From NCBI GenBank assembly GCA_965206595.1, contig OZ242214.1, positions 4,448,001-4,512,000 of the forward strand: a DNA stretch of 64,000 bases, given 5' to 3'. The notes under the pieces are model-generated. The model was not told where the DNA came from. It saw nothing but the letters and a program-made list of their open reading frames with translations, and made no database searches. Each line of letters opens with the position of its first letter. Within the stretch, counting starts at the first letter, position 1. This DNA comes from Candidatus Latescibacterota bacterium (GTDB lineage Bacteria > Latescibacterota > UBA2968 > UBA8231). Positions 32,533-48,565 of this stretch are shown here, in pieces. Made by a program: the position numbers and the translations under genes.

Positions 32533-33429
32533 TTGACAGCAATCCGTTCGAGCGACCGCTACCGGATGACCGCGGAGGAGAAGTACTACTTCGACCTGCG
32601 GGGGTACCTCGTGGTGCGGGATGTCCTTACCGCCGCGGAAACAGCCGAGTGCAACGCCGCCATCGACCGCTTCGCCGGGGAGATAAAGCAGCGCTCCCTC
32701 GAGGGAGGCGGCCTCGCCCGCGGCTCGCAGGCGCTTCGGGGGAACAGCGGGAGGCGCGAGCTCACCGGAATGCTCGGGTGGCCGGCGCCTTGGCGCGAGC
32801 CGTTCCGCAGGCTGCTCGTCCATCCCGTGGTGGTGTCGCGGCTGAACGAGATCAGCGGCCGCGGCTTCCGCCTCGACCACGGACCCACCCTGATCGCCGC
32901 CGCCCCCGGCACCGAGGGACACGCCCTCCACGGCGCCGGGGAACCGTTCGCCCCGGCGACCTGGTATCACCACCAGAACGGCCGCATCCACTGCCGCGGC
33001 GTCACCGTCGCCTGGCAGCTCACCGACGTCGAGGCCGGCGACGGTGGTTTCGCCATCGTCCCGGGAAGCCACAAGTCGCGCGAGCCCACCCCCGCGGAGG
33101 TGCGCTCCGCAGAGGACGACATGGGGCTGATCGCGCAGCCGCAGATGCGGGCCGGGGACGTGCTCTTCTTCGCCGAGACCGCAACCCACGGCACCCTGCC
33201 CTGGCGCGGCGCCGGAGAGCGGCGGTCCGTCCTCTACAAGTACGCCTCCCGGGGAGCGGCGCGCAGCGTCGGGCGATTCTTCACGCCCCGCGACCGCTAC
33301 GGCGGGTGGACGGAGGAGCTGACCCCCGAGCAGCAGGCGGTGCTGTACGGCCCCGGCGTCCACACCGGCGGGAAGCTGCCGATCCTCGAATCGGACGGAC
33401 GAACGGTTTCCGTCTCCGGGCGCAGGTGA
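32533..33429 (+). CDS. PhyH-family dioxygenase
   Basis: YFDLRGYLVV, LHGA, GGFAIVPGSHKS, THGTLPW. Confidence 0.85.
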   Translation: MTAIRSSDRYRMTAEEKYYFDLRGYLVVRDVLTAAETAECNAAIDRFAGEIKQRSLEGGGLARGSQALRGNSGRRELTGMLGWPAPWREPFRRLLVHPVVVSRLNEISGRGFRLDHGPTLIAAAPGTEGHALHGAGEPFAPATWYHHQNGRIHCRGVTVAWQLTDVEAGDGGFAIVPGSHKSREPTPAEVRSAEDDMGLIAQPQMRAGDVLFFAETATHGTLPWRGAGERRSVLYKYASRGAARSVGRFFTPRDRYGGWTEELTPEQQAVLYGPGVHTGGKLPILESDGRTVSVSGRR

Positions 33430-33602
33430 GGCCGTGTCCTGGCTCGCCCATATTCCGCCGCGGCAGGGGGCCGCATCCCGGGCAGGTCCATTTGCCGCGA
33501 ACAATTGCGGTTCAGTCCAGGAAACTTCACTTGCGTGCGGTTCCTCTCCTCGATTCCTGACCAGCCCAACTGCGGCAATCCTTTCCCGCACAGGAGCCAG
33601 GC

Positions 33603-34484
33603 ATGGATGACAGGGAGCGGTATTACTGGGACCTGACGGGGTACCTGATCGTCAAGGGAGTCCTCGGTCCGGAGGAGCTGCAAAGGGCCAACGAGGCGGT
33701 CGATTACTGTCTTCAACACCACGTCTTCGATCCGGTGATGGATTCCGCCCGCCAGTCGCGGGCCCTGGGCGGTTCGCAGCGGCGGGCAATCCAGACCGAC
33801 ATGGTCCTGCTGACCCTGGAGAAACCGCACTGCGATCCGTTCCGTGAGATGCTCGCCCACCCGCAGGTCGTCGCCCGGCTCAACGTCATGTGCGAGCCCG
33901 GGTTCCGGTTCGATCACGGCCCCCACTTCATCGGCGGCGTCCGGGGAACGGAGGGCTTGGTGATGCACGGGGCCGGCGAACCCCACCGGCCGTTCGTCGG
34001 CTACCACCACCAGGGCGGCGAGTTCCACTGCCAGGGGGTGACCGTCTCTTGGTGCCTGGCCGATGCGCGCGCCGGCGACGGCGGCTTCGCCTGCGTTCCC
34101 GGCAGCCACAAATCGCGCGAGCCGATGCCGCCGGGAGTGCGGTCGTGCGACGCCGACATGGGCGTCGTCGAGCAGCCGGTGGTCGAAGCGGGGGACGTGC
34201 TGTTCTTCATGGACGGCGCCCAGACCCACGGCACCCTGCGGTGGAACGCCGACCACGAGCGGCGCTCCATCCTGTTCAAGTACGCCGGCCGCACCGCCTC
34301 CCGGGGAGGGGCCTCGCGGGAGGTGTCCCGGCCCGAGCGCTACTGGCCCGCGGAGATCGTCGGCGGCATGAGCGATGAGCAGCGGGCGGTGATGTTCGGG
34401 CCCTGCTCCGCCCCGGGGACGGACGAGGTGTTTCTGCGGGTGGATGAGGACGGCACGGTCCGCGTCGACAGGAAGGACGGTTAG
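33603..34484 (+). CDS. PhyH-family dioxygenase (tandem paralogue)
   Basis: WDLTGYLIV, MHGA, GGFACVPGSHKS, THGTLRW. Confidence 0.85.
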   Translation: MDDRERYYWDLTGYLIVKGVLGPEELQRANEAVDYCLQHHVFDPVMDSARQSRALGGSQRRAIQTDMVLLTLEKPHCDPFREMLAHPQVVARLNVMCEPGFRFDHGPHFIGGVRGTEGLVMHGAGEPHRPFVGYHHQGGEFHCQGVTVSWCLADARAGDGGFACVPGSHKSREPMPPGVRSCDADMGVVEQPVVEAGDVLFFMDGAQTHGTLRWNADHERRSILFKYAGRTASRGGASREVSRPERYWPAEIVGGMSDEQRAVMFGPCSAPGTDEVFLRVDEDGTVRVDRKDG

Positions 34485-34488
34485 CCGG

Positions 34489-35370
34489 TCAGGACCCGGC
34501 GGGGCCCAAAAGCGTGTCGAGTGGGCTCTCGATACGCACCAGGTCCTTCCGCTGCACGTGGGTGTAGATCTCCGTCGTTTTCGAGCTCCTGTGTCCGAGG
34601 AGCTCCTGGATGTAGCGCAGATCGGTCCCCCCTTCGAGCAGGTGCGTCGCAAAGCTGTGTCTCAGGGTGTGCACGGTCACCCGCTTGCGAATTCCCGCGG
34701 CGGCGACCGCACGGGAGAACACCTTCTGCACCGACCGTTCGGTGAGATGCCGTCCTTCCCGGGCTCCGGGAAACAGCCACGTCGACGGCCGGTAAGCCTT
34801 CCAGTAGGACCGAAGATCCTCGAGAATCGCCCTGGGCAGCAGGGTGTAGCGATCCTTGCGCCCCTTGCCCTGCTGCACGCGGATCAACATGCGATCGCTG
34901 TCGATGTCGCTCACCTTGAGACGCACGACCTCCCCCACACGCAGCCCCCCGGCATACACCAGGGCCAGGATGACCCGGTGCTTGGGATTCCGAAGGGAAT
35001 CGAGCAGTCGCAGCATTTCCCGCTGGCTGAGGATTTCGGGAAGCTGGCGACCGCCACGCGGCCTGCGCAGACCCTCCAGGGAGGCGGGCTGCTTAAGGAC
35101 TTCCCCGTAGAGGAAGCTGAGAGCACTGTATAAAATGTTGAAGGCGGAGCGGCTCACCCCGCGGTCGAGGAACCATTCGAGGTGGGACCGCACCTCGTCA
35201 TGCCGTTCCCCCCGGTAGTCCCGTTTCCACTGAAGGAATCGCCGGCAGTAGCCCATGTACGACTTCTGCGTTTTCCTCGCGTACCCCCTCAGCTTCAGCT
35301 CGGACTCGACCCGGTTCAGGATGGCGACCTCTTCGTCGGTCAGGTCTGGATGTCTCCGATAGCGCCGCAT
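34489..35370 (-). CDS. Tyrosine recombinase (integron-integrase-like, N-terminal SAM-like domain) lacking the IntI insertion
   Basis: LKLRGYARKTQKSY, YAGGLRVGE, GKGRKDR, HTLRHSFATHLLE, LLGH, TEIYTHV; only RPST between YWKAY and WLFP. Confidence 0.9.
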   Translation of the reverse strand: MRRYRRHPDLTDEEVAILNRVESELKLRGYARKTQKSYMGYCRRFLQWKRDYRGERHDEVRSHLEWFLDRGVSRSAFNILYSALSFLYGEVLKQPASLEGLRRPRGGRQLPEILSQREMLRLLDSLRNPKHRVILALVYAGGLRVGEVVRLKVSDIDSDRMLIRVQQGKGRKDRYTLLPRAILEDLRSYWKAYRPSTWLFPGAREGRHLTERSVQKVFSRAVAAAGIRKRVTVHTLRHSFATHLLEGGTDLRYIQELLGHRSSKTTEIYTHVQRKDLVRIESPLDTLLGPAGS

Positions 35371-35505
35371 GGGCCCGGTTACTCCAAGGCAAAGGTTTGG
35401 CCCTGCCGTAGAGAAAGCCGTGCCAGTCCGACACGGAAACCGGAAATCGTCCTATCTGTCGCAACCGCAATGAGTCACGTCGGATATCCCGAATCGGGAA
35501 AATAG

Positions 35506-35534
35506 TTGCAACTGTTCATCCCGAAACGTACCAT
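35506..35534 (+). promoter_or_regulatory. Candidate cassette promoter (Pc-like)
   Basis: TTGCAA(35506)-17-TACCAT(35529) pointing into the array. Confidence 0.5.
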
Positions 35535-35565
35535 CGTATCAGATAAGTAACACCCGGAGGCCATT

Positions 35566-35600
35566 ATCCGAACCATTTGTTCGGATTCAATCAGTTATGC
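35566..35600 (+). other. attI-like primary recombination site
   Basis: Inverted repeat ATCCGAAC-CATTT-GTTCGGAT (35566-35586), then G|TTATGC (35594); its downstream sequence is complementary to the end of cassette 1. Confidence 0.7.
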
Positions 35601-35652
35601 GAATTTGCGCTCAGGGTTGACGTAAAGAAATCAAACGAAAGATAGCTACGCC

Positions 35653-36519
35653 TTGAAAGTGACGTTTCTCGGAACATCATCCGCTCCGTCGATGCCTATA
35701 CCGTTTTGCGTTTGTCAGGCGTGCTCAAACGCAAGGCGAGTTGGTGGAAAGAACCTTCGCAGGCGATCGTCCATCACAATCAACGACGAAGTGCTTGTGG
35801 ATATTGGCCCAGACATAGCGACCGCGTCATTCGATTACGACGTTTCGTTGACCGGAATCAGCGTCTGCCTATTGACTCATGCCCACGAGGACCACTTTGA
35901 TGCCGAGTTCATCATATCAAGACACGATGAATACGCAACTATCGTCGCACAGGACATGCTCCTTGCGGGTTCAATCGACGCGCTGAGGTCTATTGACACG
36001 ATTCTAGGCAGAAGGTGCTCGTACGGAAGCATCTTCGATCAAGAAACACAACGTGCCCTGAAGGTTAATCTGTTGACCGTCGAGCCATTCGAGACTCAAG
36101 TTGTCGGTGATTACCGTTTCACAGGATATCCCGCGAGTCACGGCACCGAGAAGGGATGCCTGCTTTACTCAATCGAGCAAGGTCAGCACGCTATATTTTA
36201 TGGTACTGATACATCGATTCTGTCGGAGAGAGTTTGGGAGCATCTTCTGCGCCAAGGCACGCAGTTCGACTTGCTCGTGCTCGATCACACGTACGGCATC
36301 GGTTTCGATGCTAGTCCGGCAGATCATCTGGCATCCGTTGATGTAATAGGCCACGTCGATCGCTTTCGGCGAAACGGTCTTCTTAAGGACAACGCGAAGG
36401 CATACGCGACTCACATTTCGCACGAAGGTTACATGGAGCATGACGAACTCGACGAGTATGCCGAAGCGCACGGTTACAGAGTCGCGTTTGACGGATTGGC
36501 GCTATCATTCAGTGTTTGA
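35653..36519 (+). CDS. Cassette 1: MBL-fold metallo-hydrolase (PhnP-like)
   Basis: FLGTSSA, CVCQAC, THAHEDH, YGTDT, THISH. Confidence 0.85.
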   Translation: MKVTFLGTSSAPSMPIPFCVCQACSNARRVGGKNLRRRSSITINDEVLVDIGPDIATASFDYDVSLTGISVCLLTHAHEDHFDAEFIISRHDEYATIVAQDMLLAGSIDALRSIDTILGRRCSYGSIFDQETQRALKVNLLTVEPFETQVVGDYRFTGYPASHGTEKGCLLYSIEQGQHAIFYGTDTSILSERVWEHLLRQGTQFDLLVLDHTYGIGFDASPADHLASVDVIGHVDRFRRNGLLKDNAKAYATHISHEGYMEHDELDEYAEAHGYRVAFDGLALSFSV

Positions 36520-36541
36520 ACAAGACACGAGCGCAAAACTC

Positions 36542-36632
36542 GCATAACAGCACGGTGTTGCGCGGCGGCGCATTCGCGCCTTGGCCTTCGGCAACCCACT
36601 TCGTGGGTTCGCAAACCGGCAGAACGTTAAGC
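36542..36632 (+). repeat. attC-like site 1 (type A)
   Basis: GCATAAC...CGGTGTTGCG/CGCAAACCG stem, internal hairpins...GTTAAGC. Confidence 0.8.
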
Positions 36633-36972
36633 GAAGGCCAAGAGAATTTGATTGTTTTTGTGGAGTATAGATCATGATAGGGAGTGGGAGGGATCGGTAC
36701 TATCCGACCCAGGTCGGCGCTGTTTGAAGAGATGGGCAGCTCGTCGTTTGTGGATTTCCCCACCCCGTCCGGCGCGCTAATACCGCTTGGGCGTTGCGTT
36801 TTACCTGGTTCAGGAAAAAGACGAGATCAATGGGCAGTTGGAGATCAGGACCTGCGGATTGGGAGACCGACGAAAGATGGAGGGCTGAGCAAGGGCGCCG
36901 GACGGCCTCTCCACCGCCCAAGCCCGAGAGTTTTCTCCCATCGTGGTCGGGCAGAGCAGGCCCTCGCTTAAC
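36627..36972 (+). ncRNA. Cassette 2: ORF-less structured element (candidate ncRNA)
   Basis: No credible ORF; paralogous to cassette 3; 11-bp helix 36765-36775/36895-36905. Confidence 0.5.
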
Positions 36973-37050
36973 ACCTGTGTCCCCGGCTCCGGGCCCTGGG
37001 GGCCCCTCGCGCAACCGCTTCGCGGTTCGGGGGCACGGAAGACGTTAAGC
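36966..37050 (+). repeat. attC-like site 2 (type B)
   Basis: GCTTAAC...CTGTGTCCCCG/CGGGGGCACGG, AACCGC-TTC-GCGGTT...GTTAAGC. Confidence 0.82.
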
Positions 37051-37381
37051 GAAGGCAAACGAAGTTTTAAGGATTGTGTGGAGTATAGATCATGATAGGG
37101 TGTCGGAAAGGTCGGTGGTATCCATCGAATGTGGCGCAATTTGCGAGGTGGGCACCTCGTCGCGAGGGACTATCCCCACCCCGTCTGGCGCGCTGTTACC
37201 GACCGTGCGTTGCGTGCCGGTTACGAGATAAAAGCCCATCGGTCGAGATCTCGGAAGCTGGCTCACGATTTAGAGTTGGAATGGAGATGGCTCAGGGAGA
37301 AGGGCGCCAGACGGCCTCTCCACCTCCCAAGCCTGAGAGGTCTTTCTCTTCGTGGTCGATGTGTGCAGGCCCTCGCCTAAC
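37045..37381 (+). ncRNA. Cassette 3: ORF-less structured element (candidate ncRNA)
   Basis: Paralogue of cassette 2; helix 37181-37191/37304-37314 carries a compensatory change. Confidence 0.5.
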
Positions 37382-37458
37382 ACCTGTTCCCCCGGCTCCG
37401 GGCCCTGCGGGCCCTTCGCGCAACCGCTTCGCGGTTCGTGGGCACCAAGACGATATAT
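37375..37458 (+). repeat. attC-like site 3 (type B, core mutated to GATATAT)
   Basis: GCCTAAC...GGGCCC-TGC-GGGCCC, AACCGC-TTC-GCGGTT...GAC GATATAT. Confidence 0.78.
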
Positions 37459-37550
37459 GACATGGGTTGTCACAGTACCAGTGAAATTCGACAGAGGCAA
37501 AGCTGGCACGGTTGAAATCATGAGCCTGCAGGCGCTGGAGAAAAACTGAC

Positions 37551-38042
37551 GTGGATCGCGTAGCCGTATTCGCAGATGTACAGAATGTTTACTACACAGT
37601 TAAGCAGCAACATAATTGCCATTTCGACTATGGTTCTTTCCTCAGGGAGGCGACAGCCGGCCGGAAACTGGTGAAGGCAGGAGCCTATGCTATTGACAAA
37701 GGCGACAGAAAGCAGGCCCAATTTCAGCAAATTCTGAAACGGCTCGGTTTTGAGGTAAAGCTCGCGCCTTATATTCAGAGAGCTGACGGCTCAGCCAAAG
37801 GGGACTGGGACGTGGGCATTACGGTCGATATGTTGGAGTACGCAGATCGCGTGGATGTCGCTGTCCTGGCTTCAGGTGACGGAGACTACGCGCCTGCAAT
37901 TGACAAGCTAATCAAGGAATCCAAGGTATCCGTCGAGGTGTACGGTGTCCCAGGACTAACTGCTAGTCGTCTAATCGAATCGTCGACGCGATTTGTGCCA
38001 ATTCAAGGAGATCTGTTGCTGCCTATTCCCACCACGTGGTGA
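37551..38042 (+). CDS. Cassette 4: NYN domain (LabA/DUF88) protein
   Basis: VFADVQNVYY, KGDWDVGITVD, LASGDGDY. Confidence 0.88.
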   Translation: MDRVAVFADVQNVYYTVKQQHNCHFDYGSFLREATAGRKLVKAGAYAIDKGDRKQAQFQQILKRLGFEVKLAPYIQRADGSAKGDWDVGITVDMLEYADRVDVAVLASGDGDYAPAIDKLIKESKVSVEVYGVPGLTASRLIESSTRFVPIQGDLLLPIPTTW

Positions 38043-38140
38043 CGTGGAAGCGACACTGTTGCAAAGCCATGCACGCTAACGCACTCTCGCGTCGCTACCT
38101 CTCTGCGTTGATCAGCCTTGGAGCAATCATACCCACGTCA

Positions 38141-38161
38141 TATATACGGAAGACGTTACCT
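38141..38161 (+). repeat. Collapsed attC-like site 4 (internal hairpin missing)
   Basis: TATATAC-GGAAGAC-GTTACCT; flanks are complementary to neighbouring cassette ends. Confidence 0.65.
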
Positions 38162-38190
38162 GCCATGGCAGTGCCCAGAAGGAGAGACAC

Positions 38191-39323
38191 ATGAAGGCCC
38201 TGACATCCATTATCGCCGCCTCAATCCTTCTCCTCTCGCCCATCCTCGCCCACGAACGAGAAGAACCCCCGGAGGGAGCCGTGGCCCGAACCGTCCTGCC
38301 AGACGCCAAGATGCCGATCATGAACGAGCACTCCCGTTCCACCCTTGTCTGCGCGATGTACGCCCTGCTGCCGGCTCTCGGGCAACAGGGCTGGTCGATC
38401 CCTCGACTGGAAGCGCTGACGGGATACGCCTTCTACTTTCAGATGCGGGAGGGCGGCGAGTCGGTCTTCGACGACGATCTCGATTGGGGCCTGGCCATGC
38501 ACGTCCTCGACATCTTTGGTCAAGCGAAAGTCTATGATGCGGACAAGAACTCGGACGTTGATCTCCCTGCGCTCAAGGCCGAAGCGCGAGACGCAGTCGT
38601 CGCCAGCCTGGAGAACGGACTTCCCAGCCTCGTCTGGGCGCCACTGAGCCTGGAGCAGAGGGGCAAGGTCCATTTCGCATGCTGGGGCCTCATCGTCGGC
38701 TACAACGCGGCAGACGAAACATACTTGATCCGCCAACCGGCCGAGAAGCTCGACTACCCGGTCCGCTTTGACGCCATCGGGTTCGCCGATCCGAGAGATT
38801 GGTTCCGCGTCGGCACCTTCAAGCCGAAAGAACTTGACGACAACGCTCTGCACCTCACCTCACTCCGCAATGCCGTCGCCTTCGCGAACGGCACTCGCTA
38901 CGACAACCCCCCAGGTCCGTCGAGGCCGCCCTCGTGCATCCCCCGAAAAACCCCTATGGATTCGCCGCCTACGAGCTCTGGCAGGAAGCGTTCGAATCTG
39001 ACGTAAATCTGAACGCCACGTTCTTCCACACAGAAACCCTGAAACCGCGTAGAGAGGCCGCGGCCGCCTACCTGCGGGAGCTCACCCATGTCTATCCGGC
39101 CGCCGCCAATCCGCTGGAAGCAGCAGCCGTTCACTATGATCGAGAGGTCGAATCCATCACCGCAATCTTCGACCTGTGCGTTGCCGCCACCAAGCACGAG
39201 CCCAAGGCCTTCACCCCCGACCAGCGCGCCGAAACCCGCTCCCTCATCGCCCAGCCGTTGAAGGCCGACCGGGCCGCCGTGGCGCAGATCGAGGCCGCGC
39301 TCAAGATTCTGGAGACGCCGTGA
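38191..39323 (+). pseudogene. Cassette 5: secreted hypothetical protein, frameshifted near 38940
   Basis: AGGAG RBS, signal peptide; ORFs 38191..39006 and 38934..39323 join at C/A homopolymers. Confidence 0.65.
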
Positions 39324-39407
39324 GGCAGGCTCAGCGTGCTCTTGACCGGGGCCCATCGTGAGGGGGGAGTACGCTGTTTCTTTGCCGATTCTCAAACTGC
39401 CACAGGC

Positions 39408-39490
39408 AGGTAACACGTCCGTGCCCGGCTTCGGGCTTACGCCCTTCGCGCAACCGCTTTCGCGGTTCGGGCACGGCGAAAACGTTATGT
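39408..39490 (+). repeat. attC-like site 5 (type B)
   Basis: AGGTAAC, perfect CCGTGCCCG/CGGGCACGG stem, two inner hairpins, GTTATGT. Confidence 0.82.
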
Positions 39491-39538
39491 GACATGGAAT
39501 AACTACCCCTAGATGAAATTTTCGCTCTACGAGCTATA

Positions 39539-40345
39539 ATGACAGAAGCAAAAGTTCTCTCACAAGATGACCTCGACCACTTCGAGACACATGGCTACAT
39601 CATTTTTCGCGGCGCATTTGATCCAGATGACTGCCGGCAGATGGAGGACATTGTCTGGCGTTGGTTGGAACGGCATGGTATCATGCGGAACGACCCCAGC
39701 ACCTGGGATCGGAATCAGGCAGGTGGGCTAAGCCGGACGGTTCGATCTACCCGTGTATTTCGCGATGCAGTATCAGAGCAGTTCGTATCGGCGATCGATC
39801 AGCTGTTGGGAACAGGTAGTTGGGAGAAACCCCGAGATTGGGGCAGTTTTGTGTTCTCGTTCCCCGAAGCCCTCGATGAACAGTGGAATGTCGCTAGCGG
39901 GAATTGGCACTGGCGCAACTCGGGTCTCCGCAACGTGGATAAGCTTGATGGGCTTTTCAATTTCTCGTTCATAACCGAGGTTCAATCTCACGGCGGTGGA
40001 ACGCACATAGCCGACGGGAGTCATCACCTGATAAGGCACTTCTACCGCACGCAAGAGAGCCTGTTTTCCCGGAACGACAGGATAGTCAAGAAGAGGTTCT
40101 TTAGTACTCATCCATGGCTCAGGGAACTGACGCAGGCAAGCGAGAATTCCATCACTCGCGTCAGACGGTTTAGGGATCAAACGACTGATGTTAATGGATT
40201 CCCCGTCCGCATCATTGAGTTGACCGGGAAGCCTGGTGACGCCATGATCGGCCATCCACTCCTGATGCACTGTCGGTCAACGAACTGTGCTGACGTGCCG
40301 AGGTTCATGAGGGCCTGTGAAATACACACGACCGCTGACAAATAG
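39539..40345 (+). CDS. Cassette 6: PhyH-family dioxygenase-like protein
   Basis: HFETHGYIIFRGAF, GGGTHIADGSH, GKPGDAMIGHPLLMH. Confidence 0.8.
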   Translation: MTEAKVLSQDDLDHFETHGYIIFRGAFDPDDCRQMEDIVWRWLERHGIMRNDPSTWDRNQAGGLSRTVRSTRVFRDAVSEQFVSAIDQLLGTGSWEKPRDWGSFVFSFPEALDEQWNVASGNWHWRNSGLRNVDKLDGLFNFSFITEVQSHGGGTHIADGSHHLIRHFYRTQESLFSRNDRIVKKRFFSTHPWLRELTQASENSITRVRRFRDQTTDVNGFPVRIIELTGKPGDAMIGHPLLMHCRSTNCADVPRFMRACEIHTTADK

Positions 40346-40377
40346 TTTGGAACCAATCTTCCATTCGGGACCACGTC

Positions 40378-40398
40378 ACATAACGAAGAACGTTTATA
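40378..40398 (+). repeat. Collapsed attC-like site 6
   Basis: ACATAAC-GAAGAAC-GTTTATA. Confidence 0.65.
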
Positions 40399-40454
40399 CG
40401 AACTGAGAAAACCAATCATCGTGAATCCGAGGCGAATCAGACAAGGCTTTACGA

Positions 40455-41174
40455 ATGATCCTTGAAGCATTGAATGATCTTTTCACATCAGAATTGCTGG
40501 CTGCCCACCCTGAAGAATGGGGCGTGACCGATCATTGTGATCCGCCTTCCAGCGTAGGGTACGCGACCACGATTACTCCGAGGGCTATTTCGACGGCACT
40601 CGACCGTGGTGCCGACGTAATTGTCACGCATCATGACGCCTGGGATTTCATGTATGAACAAAGAGAGCAGGTATACGATCTCTTACGCGACAACAGCCTG
40701 ACCCATGTATGGGCCCACTTGCCGTTGGACCAGTCCGACTTTGGCACATCGGCTACGCTTCTCTCGAAAATTGGCTGCGTGGAGGTCTGCAAGCCATCGA
40801 AAGGTGAAGTACGCATTGGTGAACTGGATGAATCAACTGACTTCGAGGCGATCCGTTTGAAGCTCGATTCCCTATTGCAGGAACAACCACGTAGCCTCCA
40901 TGATTGGGGTCGAGCCATCCGCAGAATAGGCTGCGTGACTGGGGCGGGCGTCTACACGAGTTACCTCAAGGATGCGATGCCCCATGATATTGACCTTTAT
41001 CTGACAGGAGAGACTAACCTTTACTTATTGGAGTATGCCGTCCACCTTGGACTCAGCGCCCTGGTTTACTCCCACAACTATACCGAGTTGCCAGGAGTCC
41101 ATATGTTCGCAGAGCGTTTTTGCCAAGCTCTTCAACTCGAGATGAAGGGACACCTCGGTGACTCTCACTTCTGA
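40455..41174 (+). CDS. Cassette 7: Nif3-like dinuclear metal centre protein
   Basis: VTHHD, AHLPLD, VTGAG, LYLTGE, HNYTE. Confidence 0.85.
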   Translation: MILEALNDLFTSELLAAHPEEWGVTDHCDPPSSVGYATTITPRAISTALDRGADVIVTHHDAWDFMYEQREQVYDLLRDNSLTHVWAHLPLDQSDFGTSATLLSKIGCVEVCKPSKGEVRIGELDESTDFEAIRLKLDSLLQEQPRSLHDWGRAIRRIGCVTGAGVYTSYLKDAMPHDIDLYLTGETNLYLLEYAVHLGLSALVYSHNYTELPGVHMFAERFCQALQLEMKGHLGDSHF

Positions 41175-41195
41175 TTCGGTAAAGCGACTCAATTC

Positions 41196-41287
41196 GTATA
41201 ACACCGCGGCGTTGCGCTGCGTCGCTGTTGCTCCTTGGCCTCCGGCAATCTGGCAACGCCAGATTCACAAACCGTGAAACGTTATAT
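41196..41287 (+). repeat. attC-like site 7 (type A)
   Basis: GTATAAC...CGGCGTTGCG...CCTTGGCCTCCGGCAA...TTCACAAACCG...GTTATAT; similar to site 1. Confidence 0.78.
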
Positions 41288-41299
41288 GAAATATCTGAA

Positions 41300-42061
41300 A
41301 TGAGAAAAGAAGAATCAATTGACGGAGACTATCTGGCCCCAGCGAAATACGACAAATACTACGACGCGTAGGCTACGCTTCCAGAACGGTTTCTGGCTGA
41401 CCTCGCCTCTCGCGGAAGGGTCCTTGAACTGGAATTTGGAACTGGCCGGATAGCAATTCCCCTGGCGGAGAACGGCCTTGAGGTGACCGGGATCGATTAT
41501 TCCGAGCCGATGGTAAGCCTTGCCAGATCAAAGGCCGAAGACAGACAGGTGAGGGTCGACTGGATCCGCGACGATATACGCTGCTTTGACACCGGTAAGC
41601 GATATGGGTCGATCTTGCTACTGCACAACGCATTATGGCACCTGCACAACCTTTCCGATTTCGAAGAGTGCATTCGCTGTGTGAAGCGTCATCTCCTTCC
41701 GGGTGGTTTCTTCATTTTGGACGTCTTTGTCCCTGGGGTGGAGATCCTCAATCGCGACCCAGGCATTCGGTACCCATTCTCTCGCTACACGGACGATGAC
41801 ACGGGACAAGAAGTGCAGGTTACTCAGTCCTACAGGTATGAAGCAGACACCGAGATCGCGCGCATGGTGCACTACAGAAAGGACTCTGATGAGATCGTTG
41901 GGGGTCTGAATCTCCGGATGTATTTCCCGAAGGAACTGGATGCCTTGCTGAAGTACAACGGGATAAGGATCAAGGAGAAATTCGGGAGCTGGGACCGTGA
42001 CCCCTTTGGGCCGGACTCCAGGCATCAGCTTTGTTTCTGCACCACCATGGAGGACGGCTGA
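41300..42061 (+). pseudogene. Cassette 8: class I SAM-dependent methyltransferase with in-frame TAG at codon 24
   Basis: ATG 41300 is in frame with ORF 41483; TAG 41369-41371 precedes motif I VLELEFGTGRIAIPLA. Confidence 0.75.
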
Positions 42062-42334
42062 GCAGCCGGAATCGCATATCGGATATCACTCCAATTCACC
42101 CGGCGTCCGCCGCTCCCCTGAGGCTGTGCCCACCCCGCATGCGCGAGACCGGAATTGTGAGAAAGTCTGGGGACCTTAGGATGAATTGGTCGCGAGATAC
42201 AGGAGATGATACAGGCATGTCCAACCTGAAGGACGGGACCTTCGACAAGCGCGTCGATTACGACCCGGATAGCAATGTTCCTGTCCTGTCCCCGGCATAC
42301 GCAGTGGACTTCGAAGAATTTCGAGAGGTAGGTG

Positions 42335-42870
42335 ATGAAATCTGAATACGTGATGGCGTTGATTTTCGAATTCTGGGCCTTCTGTTGGGACTTCAAGCAG
42401 TAGCCTTCATCCCGGGCATAATGTTGGCGACTTCAGAGCCGTTTTTCGGGGGTTCGCCAACATGGCCGCTCGTGATGCCTCAAGTGCTCGTATGGGTGCT
42501 GTGTCTGCCAGTAGCTTTCGTGTTGTTTCGCTACGAACGATGGCTTGCCAACCTCGTTGTGGCTGAAGACGAGCATCTGGAACTGGCGGGAGTGGCCGTA
42601 GAGACCGCCGATACCCTACCGGTTTTTCGTTTGCTCTTGCGCGTTGTTGGCGCATTCGTTGTTGCCTGGTCGGTGCCCGAGTTGGCCGGTCATGGTTTCG
42701 CCCACGTGATGCTGTACCAGATGAGCGGCCCGCAAATCTGGACTCAGATCGCCCCGGGCGTTGTGAAGCTGGCTATAGGCGTATATCTGCTCAAAGGTGG
42801 GACACACCTTGTACGCTTCGCGTACGGCTCCCAGCCCATATCCGATTACCCAGGAAATGACGAAACCTGA
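42335..42870 (+). pseudogene. Hypothetical membrane protein, 5' frameshift
   Basis: ATG 42335 out of frame with hydrophobic ORF 42385..42870. Confidence 0.5.
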
Positions 42871-43005
42871 TTACATGCCAGTCTGGAAAGGCATAAGAAA
42901 GTCGTTTCCGTGAGGAGGTCATTTGTCGTGTAACAGCGCCATTCCGGATGGAGCTTTCACCTTCGCCAGAATGCTTCTTAAGTTCGGGAAACCGGCCGAC
43001 TTGCT

Positions 43006-43362
43006 GTGAGAAGTGCAAGATCAGATCGATCAGAATCGAGGACTCCCGATGAATGGCAGGACAGGTACGTATTTGACACCCAAGGTTACGTGGTGCTTCC
43101 CGACATCCTCACTCATTCCGAGGTTGAGCGCCTCGTCGACGCCTTCCCGAGGGATGACAAAGGCCAGGTCATGCTCGAAGCTCCTGACGACAACTCACAT
43201 CATGACAACAGCATCCAGGGAAGGGTGCTCGATCATCGAGCTCTGATTGAGGCCAGCGTCACCGGCTACCTGGGACGCAGCTGCATGAAGCATCCTGCCG
43301 CCTGGGACATCGGTTCCGTCGGTAGCCTGGGGCCCATCAGGATCGCCCTGATAGGGCACTGA
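43006..43362 (+). pseudogene. PhyH-family N-terminal fragment
   Basis: RYVFDTQGYVVLPDILT, then truncated. Confidence 0.5.
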
Positions 43363-43432
43363 TTCTCACCGAATCCGACCGGTATGTCCTCAAGGCAGTA
43401 GGCGATTTGATTGGAAAAAGGGGGCCCTCGAT

Positions 43433-44176
43433 ATGCCAGGTTTCATGTCATGGAAGGAAATGAACTGGCTTCTGCCTGACTTTAATGAGACCGGGTTGAT
43501 CTACCACGGAAGTCAGCCTGAAAATCTGGCTTCTATCTTCCAGAATGGCCTGATTCCCCAATACAATAGTCCCAGAGATGGGCACGAAACAATCTACAAT
43601 GCACACTACCGGTACCGGCCCAAGTCCATTCCAGACTGGGTGGATCCGAGACGATGTATTTTTGGTTACATGAACCGGGCCAGGCAAGGAGGCTGGGGCG
43701 GCATTGTGGATGGAATAGTCAATGGTGTAACCATTGGCATTAAAGCAGCAGATCATATCACTGAGCGGACCTGGACAGCCTGCGTCCGGTTTTCAGATAT
43801 GGTGGACTGCCCGGAGGAGGCAGGGTACTTCGATACGGAGGAGAGAAAAGCCTTTTTCAAGGACAGAATGGAACCGGTTTCGTGTAAAGCATACTGGGAG
43901 ACCAGCCTCTCATTTCACGATAACTTGAAGATTCGCCTGGATCATTTGCTCCCGATGCAGGGAAATCATGAGCTATTGATTTGTTCGGAGATTGATCCTG
44001 GGTTACTAAATCTTCGAGGGTTCAGAGTGCGGGGGGCAAATGGAACACGCGAGGTTGTCAGCAATGACCTGTCCGAGGTGTTTCTGAATGCCGAAGAAAA
44101 GCTTCGGAACAACATGCCAATTGTGGGGGAACTGAAGGCCGTCAGCGAATTCTGCGGCCGTTCGGCCAGCGCCTGA
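43433..44176 (+). CDS. Hypothetical protein
   Basis: 247-aa ORF; YHGS...SIFQNGL weakly recalls ADP-ribosyltransferase/DarT-like N-termini. Confidence 0.65.
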   Translation: MPGFMSWKEMNWLLPDFNETGLIYHGSQPENLASIFQNGLIPQYNSPRDGHETIYNAHYRYRPKSIPDWVDPRRCIFGYMNRARQGGWGGIVDGIVNGVTIGIKAADHITERTWTACVRFSDMVDCPEEAGYFDTEERKAFFKDRMEPVSCKAYWETSLSFHDNLKIRLDHLLPMQGNHELLICSEIDPGLLNLRGFRVRGANGTREVVSNDLSEVFLNAEEKLRNNMPIVGELKAVSEFCGRSASA

Positions 44177-44365
44177 CAACAACGGTTTCCCTTTGAACTG
44201 CGGCGGTATTTGCACGGCCGGGCTCAAAGGTGCGTAACAACCCGGGGAGACCAGAGCCTGGTGACCGCACCCTGAAAGAATGCGGGCAGCTGTGGCGGCC
44301 ATGAAAAACGCAGGTGGGTATTGGCTTGGAGCTGAACCCAACAACGCCAACGAGGAGTCCCGAGA

Positions 44366-44707
44366 ATGAAAGAGATTGCGCCCACACTTCCGGTATCCGA
44401 TGTCCAGAAAGCTGTCGAGTTCTATCGGGGCAAGTTGGCGTTCAGTGTCGGTTTCCAGAATCATCCCGTCTTTGCTTTGGTTCGGCGCGGCGCTGTCAGT
44501 ATCGGTTTGCAGCTTGCTTCGCAGCGACGGCCAGCCGGGACAGGAAGTTGCTACATCTGGGTGGATGATGTCAGGGAAATTTATAATGAGTTGTCCGGAA
44601 GAGGAGTTGAATTCGCAGATGACATCGCGTTTCGCGATGAATATGAAATGACCGACTTCGTCCTCCATGATCCGGATGGGAACCACATCGGGATTGGCGG
44701 AAACTGA
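44366..44707 (+). CDS. VOC/glyoxalase/bleomycin-resistance family protein
   Basis: LPVSDVQKAVEFY, FVLHDPDGNHI. Confidence 0.85.
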   Translation: MKEIAPTLPVSDVQKAVEFYRGKLAFSVGFQNHPVFALVRRGAVSIGLQLASQRRPAGTGSCYIWVDDVREIYNELSGRGVEFADDIAFRDEYEMTDFVLHDPDGNHIGIGGN

Positions 44708-44807
44708 GGGGGTCATGAATGCGAATCTGGCAGGTTCCATCGCCCTGACTCCACCTCTAAGGCCAATGGGGGTAAAAAGCGGACGTTCTTAGTGGAAGCT
44801 CGATTCC

Positions 44808-45593
44808 ATGGAACTGACCAGAGATGACATTGAAGCGGGCTTTCGTAATCTCGGCCTGAAGGAAGGCGAAACAGTTGAAGTTCATAGCTCATTGAGCAGC
44901 TTGCGCAATGTGCAAGGGGGAGCTGAAACTGTCGTGGATGCCTTGATGAGTGTCGTGGGCGAAAGTGGAGCGTTGGTGATGTCCAACTATCCGCTCACCC
45001 CCCCGATCCCCTTGACTTCCGAGGAGAAATCCAAAGGAATAGGTTGGAAACTCAGAATTCTGACCGAGGACTCAGACGAAAGGACGGTGACCGGCGCCAT
45101 TTCCGACGAGTTTCGCTTCAGAGCTGATGTTGTATGCGGTTCTGGGACCCGTCGTGTCTGTGCCTGGGGCCGGGATGCGGATTTGCACGCCAAGGGATAT
45201 CGACACTTGCTCGAAGTCGATGGGCTGGTTCTTCTCCTTGGTGTAGACATAGATCGATGTTCAAGCATGCATCTCGCCGACGGAGTGAAGGTTACCAAGG
45301 AGGCCAGGGAGCGGATGAATGCAATATGGCCTGATCCAGGGTGCAAAATCACGGACGAAGTCAGGCGGGAATATCCTTCAGATATAATCATTGGCCCCAG
45401 GGAAGGGACATCTGGAAATCCTTGGGAAAATGCCAGACAGGAAGCTGAAAGACGAGGATTGATAAGGAGAGGTAAGGTCGGTCAAGCAGACTGCTTGCTA
45501 TTCAGGGCGAGGGATCTAGTCGGTCTGATTGAGAAAGTTCGTAAATCTGGGCCTTTCAAAGACGCATTGCAGAACATTTTTGACGAGGAATAA
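44808..45593 (+). CDS. AAC(3)/YokD family N-acetyltransferase
   Basis: VHSSLSSL..V.GGAETVVDAL, GAISDEFR, LLLGVDIDRCSSMHLA. Confidence 0.8.
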   Translation: MELTRDDIEAGFRNLGLKEGETVEVHSSLSSLRNVQGGAETVVDALMSVVGESGALVMSNYPLTPPIPLTSEEKSKGIGWKLRILTEDSDERTVTGAISDEFRFRADVVCGSGTRRVCAWGRDADLHAKGYRHLLEVDGLVLLLGVDIDRCSSMHLADGVKVTKEARERMNAIWPDPGCKITDEVRREYPSDIIIGPREGTSGNPWENARQEAERRGLIRRGKVGQADCLLFRARDLVGLIEKVRKSGPFKDALQNIFDEE

Positions 45594-45672
45594 GGATGGC
45601 GCTGATAGCTCAGCGCGGAGAAAGCAGGGCAAAGGTCCAAGACGAACCGCGGCGGACCTGGCCGGAATGACT

Positions 45673-47034
45673 ATGCAATACTTCCAACCTGGCGGCGACT
45701 TCTTCGTCGGCGACTGCATGCCCTTTTACCACGATGGTGTCTTCCGGCTCTTCTACCTTCTGGACGAGGGCCACCACGGAGCACTCGGCGGGTTGGGAGG
45801 CCATCAGTGGGCACAGGCAAGCACGACGGACCTCCTTCACTGGGAACACCATCCGCTCGCCATCCCGATCACCGAGGAGCGTGAAGGTTCCATCTGCACC
45901 GGTTCGGTGTTCTTCCACGAAGGGACATACTACGGTTTCTACGCGACGCGCATGCGCGACAGGACGCAGCATCTGAGTCTTGCGACCAGTCACGAGGGCG
46001 TCCACTTCCAGAAGACCGAACCCAATCCGTTCGCTTCGCCGCCTCCTGGCTACGACCCGGTCCATTACCGTGACCCGTTCGTCTTCCAGGATCGCGGTGA
46101 AGGACTCTTCCACATGCTCGTTACGGCGTGCCTGGAAGACTGGCCCATCGGCGACCGCGGCGGGTGCCTTGCCCACCTGGTTTCCGCAGACTTGAAACAC
46201 TGGGAGAACAGAAAGCCGTTTATCGTGCCGGGTCTGCCGGGGGCGCCCGAATGTCCGGATTATTTCTTCTGGAATGGCTGGTACTATCTCGTATTCAGCA
46301 ACCGCGGGGTCGCCCGCTACAGAATGTCGCGAGAGCCCTTCGGACCCTGGCTTCGGCCGCAGGTCGACGCCCTTGACGGAGCTGCTGCACGGGTAATGAA
46401 GACTGCGCCATTCGGGGACGGCAGGCGCCTTGGTGTTGCCTGGATCGGCACACGCGAGAACAACCGGGACGATGGACCGTTTCAGTGGGGGGGCAACGCC
46501 GTATTCCGAGAACTGATCCAACATGACGACGGCACTCTTGGTGCGAAGTTTCCGGAGGAACTGACCCCTGGCGGTGACCCGCTGTCCGCTCTGCACCTGT
46601 CCGCGCTCGATGCCGATACGAGAGTTGAGGGACGCAGTGTCCACGCAGCAGCTCGGCAAGGCCTGGCAGCGGCCGGCTGTTCCGGCATTCCACGCAATGC
46701 GCGACTGGCAATCCGTGTCCTTCCTCAGCCAGGCTCCCTGGGTTTCGGGCTTCGCCTCCGGGCTGGTGAGACATTCGACTCAGGATGCGACCTGGACTTC
46801 TCACCCTATGACCGGGTCGCCAGGCTGCACGATCAGTGGATATATGGTGTCGATGGACTGGATCGCCCCTTCTCCCTGGAGATAGTTCTCAGGGACGACA
46901 TCATTGACGTTTGCATCGACGGCCGCAGGACGCTTATCGATCGATGTCCGGAAAGGCGGGGCGACCGGATGCTGCTGTATGCGCAGGATTCGGGGGTCAC
47001 GTTTGAGGTTGCCGAGATCGCTGCTCTGCCGTAG
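45673..47034 (+). CDS. Glycoside hydrolase family 32-like
   Basis: GDCMPFY, ICTGSV, YRDPFV, ECPDYF. Confidence 0.82.
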   Translation: MQYFQPGGDFFVGDCMPFYHDGVFRLFYLLDEGHHGALGGLGGHQWAQASTTDLLHWEHHPLAIPITEEREGSICTGSVFFHEGTYYGFYATRMRDRTQHLSLATSHEGVHFQKTEPNPFASPPPGYDPVHYRDPFVFQDRGEGLFHMLVTACLEDWPIGDRGGCLAHLVSADLKHWENRKPFIVPGLPGAPECPDYFFWNGWYYLVFSNRGVARYRMSREPFGPWLRPQVDALDGAAARVMKTAPFGDGRRLGVAWIGTRENNRDDGPFQWGGNAVFRELIQHDDGTLGAKFPEELTPGGDPLSALHLSALDADTRVEGRSVHAAARQGLAAAGCSGIPRNARLAIRVLPQPGSLGFGLRLRAGETFDSGCDLDFSPYDRVARLHDQWIYGVDGLDRPFSLEIVLRDDIIDVCIDGRRTLIDRCPERRGDRMLLYAQDSGVTFEVAEIAALP

Positions 47035-47149
47035 CGCAGAGAGAATTGCGGGCCACACCACCCGCCACCAATCCCCAACACCCGGGGAACAGAAGCTGGG
47101 GTTCACAAACAGACAGCCCGTTAGGCGCCAGTCGAGGAAACTCCCGAAC

Positions 47150-47764
47150 GTGAAACGGACGGCCACCAAAATCCCACTCAGGGTGCAGACAACGCGGTTG
47201 GAAACCTTCAACCGCGAACGTCACGCCTGGCCGGTCTCCCTGCGCCGGAAGTGCTCGGCGGATTCGGGGCGAACCTGGGTCTTCACGGATGGTGGCGGTG
47301 ATGGGCGGTTCGGGGCTGTCGTTGTGCGTCCGGGAATCGAAGAACACCGGATGGCGGGACGCCGCGGATCACGGACCAACAGCGTGGTTGCCGAACTCGA
47401 TGGGGTCGTGTTGGGTCTGGAGAATTGCCGACTGGGTGAGAGAATCACGATCGTGTCCGACTATCTGTGGACAGCATACTATATCAACGGCTGGCGCCGC
47501 GTACACCATCCTCGGCTTCGTGAAGGAGTTGTACATGCGAGGAGGCGTCTGGAAAAGCTGCGGGGCGCCGTGTTCGTGCATTACGCGCTGGAAACCGGGG
47601 GCGAATGTGCCTTCAGACGATGGAACGCTGTCGCTCATGACCTGTGTCAAAAGGACATGGTCGGGACCAACTCGCGTACTCCTTGGGACCAGACCAAAGC
47701 GTTGGACATTGTTTCGGAATATCCCCTGAATAGACGGGGACATACCGCATTGTCCCCGGTATAG
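47150..47764 (+). CDS. RNase HI-like protein
   Basis: VFTDG, TNSVVAEL, IVSDY, WNAVAHDL; follows GTTAGGC core at 47120; start uncertain. Confidence 0.6.
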   Translation: MKRTATKIPLRVQTTRLETFNRERHAWPVSLRRKCSADSGRTWVFTDGGGDGRFGAVVVRPGIEEHRMAGRRGSRTNSVVAELDGVVLGLENCRLGERITIVSDYLWTAYYINGWRRVHHPRLREGVVHARRRLEKLRGAVFVHYALETGGECAFRRWNAVAHDLCQKDMVGTNSRTPWDQTKALDIVSEYPLNRRGHTALSPV

Positions 47765-47797
47765 GCAGACACGTCACCTAAAAAGGAAACGCGCAAA

Positions 47798-48565
47798 ATG
47801 GGACACTGCTGGACGCTTGCCCTTGAACAGCAAACGGACCTGACCTCATCCCACGGCTCGGTTTCCGAGTTGGCGGCAGCAGTACGCCGAGGCGCGGATC
47901 TCCGGCTTTACATGACCACGGATCGGTACGAGGAAACCCTCTACTTCCAGCAGACTTATGCCGGTGAGAATGGCGCGTTCGCAGGGCTGATGAGCCACCA
48001 CCACAGCTACGTGCACCGCGGCCAGGACATAGAGCAACCATACATCAGCATCTTCAAATACGACGACTCCGGGAGCTTCTCCCACGTGAAGTGGATGTCG
48101 GGTGATGTGCGCATGGATGAGAGCCAGGCCTATTCGTACGGGATATATCGGTGGTTTATCTGCGACCGCTGGCGAACCGTCTACGAGCACGATGCCGATG
48201 GCAGTCCCGTGCGCGGAAATCTGGAGGAACTGAAAGAGCATGTCCGGCTGGGGCACTCGGTTCAGGTAGGAGTCCGCCAACTGTTCGGTTTGGCCGAGGA
48301 TACCACTGCCGGGCCATCGCACATCTCGTTTGTCACCACGATGCAGCCGCTCATCCGGGATGCCCATGTGCAGTCCAACTGCGACCTCGTTGCGATAGGC
48401 GCCCCGAAATGGCCGTGCACCTGGCGCGACGGCCTCCATGTGGCAGTGATGCTCCCCTCCACGTCCGGTGAGATTCTTTGCTTCCTTGCCGAACCGGGGA
48501 ATCTCCCGTTTAGACGGGTCATGCGCCGGCGCCCCATGCAGTGGATGGTGGCGGAGATGGAGTGA
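47798..48565 (+). CDS. Hypothetical protein
   Basis: 255-aa ORF with AAGGA RBS. Confidence 0.7.
   Translation: MGHCWTLALEQQTDLTSSHGSVSELAAAVRRGADLRLYMTTDRYEETLYFQQTYAGENGAFAGLMSHHHSYVHRGQDIEQPYISIFKYDDSGSFSHVKWMSGDVRMDESQAYSYGIYRWFICDRWRTVYEHDADGSPVRGNLEELKEHVRLGHSVQVGVRQLFGLAEDTTAGPSHISFVTTMQPLIRDAHVQSNCDLVAIGAPKWPCTWRDGLHVAVMLPSTSGEILCFLAEPGNLPFRRVMRRRPMQWMVAEME

Follow-up and report, generated by a model that had tools for sequence, protein, structure and literature searches.

What keeps two neighbouring, related stretches of about 0.4 kb in a bacterial chromosome if they carry no recognizable gene? The question arises in a 64,000-nucleotide (nt) window of a Candidatus Latescibacterota genome (GenBank assembly GCA_965206595.1, contig OZ242214.1, positions 4,448,001 to 4,512,000, forward strand), which is assembled as a single contig of 7.05 Mb. 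Positions below refer to this window unless a locus of another genome (L010, L017) is named. The two stretches are cassettes 2 and 3 of an integron array (Table 1), and an initial annotation had proposed them as a mobile, structured non-coding RNA (ncRNA) whose fold is under selection. We find that they are subtypes A and B of a small family of gene-less cassettes, bounded by attC sites, with varied array positions and at least two copies per array. We hold with moderate confidence that this family persists by recombination and has at most an undefined role in cis.

A gene-less cassette family bounded by attC sites

Cassettes 2 and 3 both begin with TTAAGC, directly after the G of a GTTAAGC core. 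Each is bounded by attC sites with an inverse core (RYYYAAC) and a core (GTTRRRY), except that the right junction of cassette 3 is non-canonical. The array adjoins an intI-like gene and an attI-like region, an integron setting in which both cassettes hold promoter-proximal positions; the initial annotation had placed them early in the array. Their interiors are 69.2% identical over 318 nt and their attC sites 89.9% identical, with alignment gaps of 1, 1, 4, 2 and 1 nt. These indels are not errors of the window assembly, because 36589-38200 is matched without difference by a contig of 2033 nt from run X1, a run that may represent the source sample. The most conspicuous shared piece is the 24-mer at 36659-36682, which recurs identically at 37077-37100. 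No further copies of either interior were found elsewhere in the window's genome.

Related copies were found in close relatives. A DNA search among 101 relatives returned two further copies (G001_a and G001_b), both in G001, a same-genus relative of the window's genome (G000). With a sequence-only profile of these four interiors (R1), we then searched 76 family genomes and a phylum sample of 151 genomes. The profile added one diverged copy (E 1.4e-5) in G019, a genome of the same family and a different genus. Three of the 151 phylum-sample genomes matched, and these were the same three that matched in the family. A degenerate pattern of the most conserved block, scanned against one genome per GTDB species (a set that may omit the window's own genome), matched only in G001 and G019. 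The family therefore comprises five genomic copies in three Latescibacterota genomes (2+2+1), effectively three lineages, and five additional copies derived from open reading frames (ORFs) on three ENA contigs, described below. It is lineage-restricted, with copies found in three genomes of one Latescibacterota family. The host lineage appears to be sponge-associated.

Other matches were set aside as chance. Profile matches in G053 and G113 fell in a hemF-like (coproporphyrinogen oxidase-like) coding gene, and five DNA matches of 20-38 nt (G027, G035, G051, G052 and G093) had E values of 0.004-0.01. Likewise, a pattern scan of metagenomes gave 22-nt matches at three loci, in unrelated, apparently protein-coding sequence and without flanking similarity. 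Beyond these, weak profile matches had E values of 0.02-0.7.

The copies differ in their place in the array, occurring first at attI, second or third. G001_a is the first cassette, directly at the attI-like site, and G001_b (L010 8874-9338), the copy closest to cassette 2 (88% identity), is the third and is followed by the same NYN cassette as in the window. The G019 copy is also a cassette, with an attC upstream, its own attC closely like that of cassette 2, and DUF4440 and DUF6933 genes as neighbours; it is about 60 nt longer than the other copies (L017). Presence also differs between strains. Contigs of runs X4 and X6 join the attI point directly to 37452, and contigs of the same runs join the cassette 1 attC to 38153, skipping both copies. 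Additional contig depth over 36622-36997 indicates that there are other variants as well. Near-identical strains thus differ by cassette presence at exact core sites, which is direct evidence that the cassettes are mobile. Taken with the attC bounds and the interior identity, these junctions bear out the earlier proposal of paralogous mobile cassettes. Downstream of the copies lie the NYN cassette (twice), a GNAT gene, a DUF6933 gene or another copy. We considered and rejected a functional link to the NYN cassette: the downstream neighbours vary, and strains with the NYN cassette directly at attI indicate no obligate link.

Table 1. Features of the array and of cassettes 2 and 3 (window positions; aa, amino acids)
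Feature	Position	Strand	Details
intI-like tyrosine recombinase	34489-35370	-	293 aa; array head; Pfam Phage_integrase 2.4e-41 and SAM-like N domain
attI-like region	35511-35603	+	first cassette joined after G35594 (CAATCAG/TT)
Cassette 1	35595-36626	+	MBL-fold hydrolase gene 35653-36519, Pfam Lactamase_B_2 1.1e-11
attC of cassette 1	36542-36632	+	from attC scan; other type than those of cassettes 2 and 3
Cassette 2	36627-37044	+	gene-less family copy, subtype A, 418 nt
Conserved 5' block	36659-36682	+	GGAG, 8-nt spacer, ATG (36674-36676); identical in cassette 3
5' arm, cassette 2	36765-36775	+	11-bp inverted repeat, CCGTCCGGCGC
3' arm and most conserved interior block	36892-36930	+	GGGCGCCGGACGGCCTCTCCACCGCCCAAGCCCGAGAG; kept in 5/5 genomic copies including G019
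3' arm, cassette 2	36895-36905	+	11-bp inverted repeat, GCGCCGGACGG
attC of cassette 2	36966-37050	+	R'' GCTTAAC ... R' GTTAAGC; stem reaches into the cassette's first 13 nt
Cassette 3	37045-37452	+	gene-less family copy, subtype B, 408 nt
5' arm, cassette 3	37181-37191	+	CCGTCTGGCGC, C to T
3' arm, cassette 3	37304-37314	+	GCGCCAGACGG, G to A
attC of cassette 3	37375-37452	+	GCCTAAC...G; ends at G37452, followed by ATATAT, not TT
NYN cassette	37453-38155	+	30-aa ORF 37457-37549; NYN-domain gene 37551-38042, Pfam NYN 8.7e-37

Open reading frames in the cassettes

The cassettes had been described as lacking credible ORFs, and this description is correct as far as protein conservation goes, but ORFs of 95 and 122 aa do exist in them, the longer beginning at a conserved ATG. 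From this ATG (37092), cassette 3 has 122 stop-free codons. The frame from the conserved start codon is also stop-free in G001_a (123 codons) and G019 (146 codons); it has one TGA in 125 codons in cassette 2 (codon 18) and three stops in G001_b. Selenocysteine at the cassette 2 TGA was considered and rejected, as the TGA of G001_b sits at another codon.

None of these frames behaves as a protein-coding gene. Copies use different frames across the conserved blocks, and the indels among them include lengths that are not multiples of three. Codon differences between cassettes 2 and 3 comprise 3-8 synonymous to 44-50 non-synonymous changes in each of the six frames. Per-block amino-acid conservation, corrected for nucleotide changes, never exceeded a z of 2.52 and indicated no consistent frame. 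The initial annotation had named a conserved small ORF with a codon-type substitution pattern as evidence against its own proposal; we looked for such an ORF and found it in no frame. Between the full-length ORFs of G001_a and G019, likeness is confined to 16 attC-encoded residues, and between those of cassette 3 and G019 there is none. All five copies are GC-rich overall (0.61-0.66), and in each frame their GC content stays flat across the codon positions (0.53-0.69); neighbouring cassette genes show the usual dip at the second codon position (GC2 of 0.39-0.46) in five out of five cases. The 95- and 122-aa ORFs matched no Pfam family.

A protein search over 5.8 billion clusters, begun with the translation of cassette 3 in its ATG frame and repeated with one of the matches, returned five ORFs (P0001-P0005) on three ENA contigs. 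P0001 and P0003 are cassette-3-like (subtype B), and P0002, P0004 and P0005 are cassette-2-like (subtype A). P0002, P0003 and P0005 lie on one 7701-nt contig that holds at least three copies, because P0005 continues past an attC into the opening letters of a further copy. Relative to cassette 3, the five ORFs hop between frames; they are translations of the same cassette DNA. A search for shorter ORF relatives found none. Given the lack of frame-consistent conservation, the flat codon GC, the lack of a Pfam family and the frame-hopping ENA ORFs, we conclude that cassettes 2 and 3 are, as judged from their sequence, non-coding.

On this evidence we regard it as most improbable that the family represents a small protein gene, decayed or fast-evolving, whose product of about 120 aa would be rich in Arg, Pro and Gly. 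Some details would fit such a gene. Its start context and open frames are suitable, LVARDFP in G001 corresponds to LVARDYP in cassette 3 with five of seven differences at third positions (by inspection), and the variable sites in CCACCNCCC show a period of 3. However, conservation follows no single frame, GC2 is 0.54-0.69 in all frames, no Pfam family is matched, and the only relatives among the 5.8 billion clusters are five ORFs that all hop frames on the same DNA.

An open frame could also matter without its peptide. In class 1 integrons, short attI1 ORFs and translation through attC affect the expression of downstream cassettes. By analogy, the Shine-Dalgarno (SD)-ATG block and open frame might run ribosomes through the attC hairpin to the next cassette, with the peptide irrelevant, which would account for both the lack of amino-acid conservation and the flat codon composition. 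The GGAG-8 nt-ATG arrangement is part of a 24-nt stretch that shows no difference between copies with only 69% identity, and three of five copies have zero stops despite their different mid-cassette frames. The open frames run to the cassette end, where the TGA of cassette 3 shares letters with the start ATG of the following ORF (ATGA, 37457-37460) and G001_a stops at a TAG within the core site, 6 nt short of the listed GTG start of the next cassette. We nevertheless rate this translated leader as quite unlikely. Cassette 2 has its TGA at codon 18 and G001_b its three stops, while P0001, P0003 and P0004 end at the TAA of the R'' box, before the hairpin. The SD-ATG block is not kept in G019, which has a GTG without evident SD at the corresponding place (by inspection). 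We note that ORFs in a protein database are present there because they are open, an ascertainment bias. Moreover, a translated leader leaves the conserved interior blocks and the inverted repeat unexplained.

A more elaborate form of the idea, which we put forward as speculation of low probability, is a mobile "expression adaptor" that would be selected to be translated and not for its product, delivering ribosomes to the downstream start codon. That the C-rich 3' blocks, being able to pair with the SD/AUG block, would gate this translation is a part of the same proposal that we consider equally speculative.

Inverted repeat and conserved interior blocks

The features on which the initial annotation had based its ncRNA proposal are present: every coordinate and string given for the identical 24-mer, the 11-bp arms and the second pairing proved correct on re-checking. 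To place the 11-bp repeat in context, we note that perfect inverted repeats of at least 11 bp occurred in 7 of 1000 and 5 of 1000 dinucleotide shuffles of the two interiors and in 90 of 3000 GC-matched 320-nt windows of the same genome, so that the repeat is unusual, not extreme. In the five-copy alignment, nine of its 11 pairs are invariant. At one pair, three copies have C-G, cassette 3 has U-A and G019 has a G.A mismatch. G019 is also broken at one end pair, and with its second arm-like motif the covarying pair becomes C.A. Judging from the codons of P0001-P0004, the subtype-B copies would all have T/A here and the subtype-A copies all C/G. Because the change tracks the two subtypes, the compensatory double change counts as one event. 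The compensation claimed for this helix is thus real, but it is a single event and is mismatched in G019.

The second helix pairs 36670-36684 with 36935-36948, and its G-U pairs restrict it to the + strand. It had been described as retained in the second copy, which is true of its eight outer pairs, unchanged in cassette 3, but only partly true of the inner GGGAG/CTCCC part. Across the four close copies the outer eight do not vary, and they are not kept in G019.

These observations could reflect a structured + strand ncRNA, closed by the 11-bp helix and by the 5'-3' pairing over the SD/AUG, whose fold is selected. Such an RNA would fit the rarity of the perfect repeat (0.5-0.7% of shuffles, 3% of genome windows), its retention in four of five copies with one matched C-G to U-A change, and the G-U pairs of the second pairing, which exist on the + strand only. 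It would also fit the alternation of conserved blocks with diverged, indel-rich stretches and the sense orientation of the cassettes to the integron promoter. There is a precedent in sRNA-Xcc1, a trans-acting small RNA (sRNA) borne on a Xanthomonas integron cassette, as cited in part of the text of Tansirichaiya et al. 2019 (Sci Rep 9:8388, PMC6557892).

The tests of folding, however, gave such an RNA no support. The covariation score of both helices together (25 proposed pairs, one compensatory event) was reached by 42 of 500 shuffles, in a test of low power with five sequences from three lineages. Minimum free energy (MFE) was not better than in shuffles on the + strand (z of +0.97 in cassette 2, -0.67 in cassette 3 and +2.14 in G019) or on the - strand (z of -0.40 and -0.43). 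The ensemble probability of the 11-bp helix was 0.68, 0.72 and 0.45 in three copies and 0 in G001_a and G019. We built a covariance model from the central 200 columns with an RNAalifold structure and compared it with a sequence-only model of the same columns. G019 scored 20.2 bits with the structure model versus 22.0 bits with the sequence-only model, and the structure model fitted it by switching to the second arm-like motif and deleting most of the interior. Structure therefore adds nothing for the sole divergent homologue. An RNAalifold run with G019 added was not used, as MAFFT misplaced the 5' arm of G019. Rfam 15 gave 0 matches at E<=1 over 33000-48000 on both strands, the outcome of a check that the initial annotation had proposed.

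Signals of independent transcription were also sought. A consensus scan found no sigma-70-like promoter or intrinsic terminator inside the cassettes, although promoters of this phylum may differ; over 35300-38300, a scan of sigma-70 type gave three promoter-like sites, all outside 36627-37452. In an RNA library (run X20, labelled sponge metagenome), a 203-nt contig matches 37564-37766, within the NYN gene, with one difference. The other X20 contigs are short pieces elsewhere and none lies on 36627-37452, although such contigs cannot show the absence of a transcript. A trans target was considered and rejected, as the best antisense match (18 nt, E 0.006) lies within an unrelated coding gene and makes no case. 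Selection on the RNA fold is not supported by covariation, MFE or covariance-model comparison, with three lineages giving these tests little power, and we consider a structured ncRNA unlikely.

What the copies do share is a set of short pieces: the 38-nt 3' block, the 5' arm region, the GAGATGG block and the attC occur in all five, and the rest of G019 is barely alignable. The 38-nt block holds the 3' arm and reads GGGCGCCRGACGGCC.C.CC.CC.CCC.AGCC. The conserved blocks are not an extension of the attC, because the genome's other cassettes with this attC type are without them. Interior blocks common to two genera suggest some constraint on the sequence.

This constraint might act on DNA, with the arm motif CCGTCNGGCG as a repeated protein-binding motif or the blocks as promoter or other regulatory DNA. 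The motif occurs three times in G019 (two direct, one inverted), with G, C and T at its centre (L017 1604-1613, 1679-1691 and 1752-1762, the second direct copy included). A repeated sequence motif appears to account for these copies at least as well as a helix does, and with their variable centre they would suit a degenerate motif better. Promoter activity, moreover, has been shown for ORF-less cassettes of Treponema type, according to the part of PMC6557892 that deals with them. Against a DNA-level element, the motif is not enriched elsewhere in the window (5 matches versus 2.58 expected, four of the five being the arms themselves). The GC-rich cassettes contain no sigma-70-like promoter, with the caveat on the phylum's promoters given above, no candidate binding protein is linked to them, and the cassettes beside them vary from genome to genome. 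We therefore regard this explanation as very unlikely.

Two further origins of the repeat were tried and rejected. An invertible segment does not fit, as the stretch beside the 5' arm aligns in one orientation in all copies. A miniature inverted-repeat transposable element with terminal repeats does not fit either, as the arms are better conserved than the interior and a target duplication is lacking (by inspection).

Persistence, known cassettes and the surrounding array

We return to the reading that we favour, a gene-less family maintained by recombination. Integrase-mediated attC recombination would move, duplicate and delete the cassettes, which would encode no protein. They may persist as selfish passengers with an efficient attC. 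Alternatively, their sense-strand sequence may act in cis on the cassette transcript from the integron promoter, with the SD-ATG block, the C-rich 3' block and the 11-bp repeat as candidate parts. Some of the results weigh against this reading. The start-codon frame is without stops in three of five copies, compared with 2.7-8.2% of 2000 shuffles per copy, which is not expected of plain non-coding DNA. Retention of interior blocks across genera is not expected of a purely selfish element, and the 11-bp repeat with its matched double change is unlikely under independent mutation.

Gene-less cassettes with paralogues in the same array have a precedent. In the part of Boucher et al. 2006 (BMC Evol Biol 6:3, PMC1382264) drawn on here, paralogous non-coding cassettes are described from Vibrio chromosomal integrons, where such cassettes make up 6-49% of arrays. 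They tend to have paralogues in the same array, and their close homologues are confined to related species. Their conservation, which shows no synonymous-site pattern, suggests purifying selection, and the authors read them as selfish elements or as a promoter or RNA useful to the integron. Cassettes 2 and 3 are like these in being attC-bounded and gene-less, with paralogues in the array and homologues only in close relatives; the homologues are conserved over their whole length, again with no synonymous-site pattern. They fall outside the working definition of that paper (no ORF above 150 bp), because ORFs of 95-146 aa exist in them. As far as the Vibrio cassettes are described in that part of the text, cassettes 2 and 3 also differ in their Latescibacterota host, in having no sequence similarity to them, in their GC-rich composition and in their long, unconserved open frames. 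On the same comparison, two features are specific to the present family: the 11-bp inverted repeat inside the cassette and the SD-ATG block with its open frame.

Two other kinds of cassette are relevant, both from the part of PMC6557892 cited above. In the oral metagenome, 13 of 63 cassettes were ORF-less and some of these had promoter activity. Those cassettes are gene-less like ours, and some stand first beside attI and are thought to modulate the expression of neighbouring cassettes. Unlike them, as that text presents them, the present family has no promoter-like site in a sigma-70-type scan and no sequence relation to them. The sRNA-Xcc1 cassette is likewise ORF-less and gives a regulatory RNA of the kind that the initial annotation proposed. 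The present family, in contrast to what is reported there, is known from DNA alone, has no Rfam match, and has an 18-nt antisense match as its sole one.

Our literature search did not find this family described, nor, among the papers listed, one joining integrons and Latescibacterota. Our best reading is that the family is a new, lineage-restricted addition to the known paralogous non-coding integron cassettes (Boucher et al. 2006). It extends the phenomenon of non-coding cassettes to the integrons of a poorly studied phylum. Additionally, with a length of about 410 nt, two subtypes, conserved blocks, and a start signal followed by an open frame, it is a compact case in which experiments could distinguish the selfish, RNA, promoter and translation-coupling readings. 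As it stands, this is one more family and not a new principle.

The integrase at the head of the array has as its top NCBIfam match the integron integrase TIGR02249, with 223.6 bits against a cut-off of 265 and matched in two stretches. With its short length, this sub-cut-off, two-stretch match may indicate that part of the IntI-specific insert is missing. The attI-like region shares 80% identity with L010 7443-7536 of G001, and a family copy there is attached at the equivalent position. G001 (L010 1-7536) retains the 93-nt attI-like region and a long array, and a tblastn search of the 19-kb locus did not find an intI homologue. At the start of cassette 2, 36632-36642 (CGAAGGCCAAG) is an 11-nt perfect complement of 36580-36590 in the cassette 1 attC (CTTGGCCTTCG), so the cassette 2 start is able to pair with either the upstream attC or its own inverse core.

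Downstream of cassette 3, the NYN cassette carries a 30-aa ORF ahead of the NYN-domain ORF (GTG at 37551), with the spacing TGA-C-GTG. The two may form a small two-gene module, possibly toxin-antitoxin-like; the 30-aa ORF matched no Pfam family. This cassette is joined at G/ATATAT rather than G/TT (37452-37462), and its attC in G001 starts with ATATATC rather than RYYYAAC (L010 9330-9345, 10018-10115), so that the most conserved attC triplet GTT/AAC is replaced by GAT/ATC. The G/ATATAT junction recurs in G001 and in the X4 and X6 contigs, where the NYN cassette stands directly at attI. In the window's genome, the attC of the NYN cassette (38135-38160) is reduced to about 22 nt and its tail equals the end of the type of attC found in the family, which makes it a hybrid or truncated site. 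The array continues with at least two more cassettes, ending at attC sites 39411-39490 and 41196-41287. Outside the window, attC-like sites of the same two types lie at about 2.6 kb, 110.1-110.7 kb, 3.347-3.364 Mb and 5.957 Mb, which suggests other cassette clusters in this genome.

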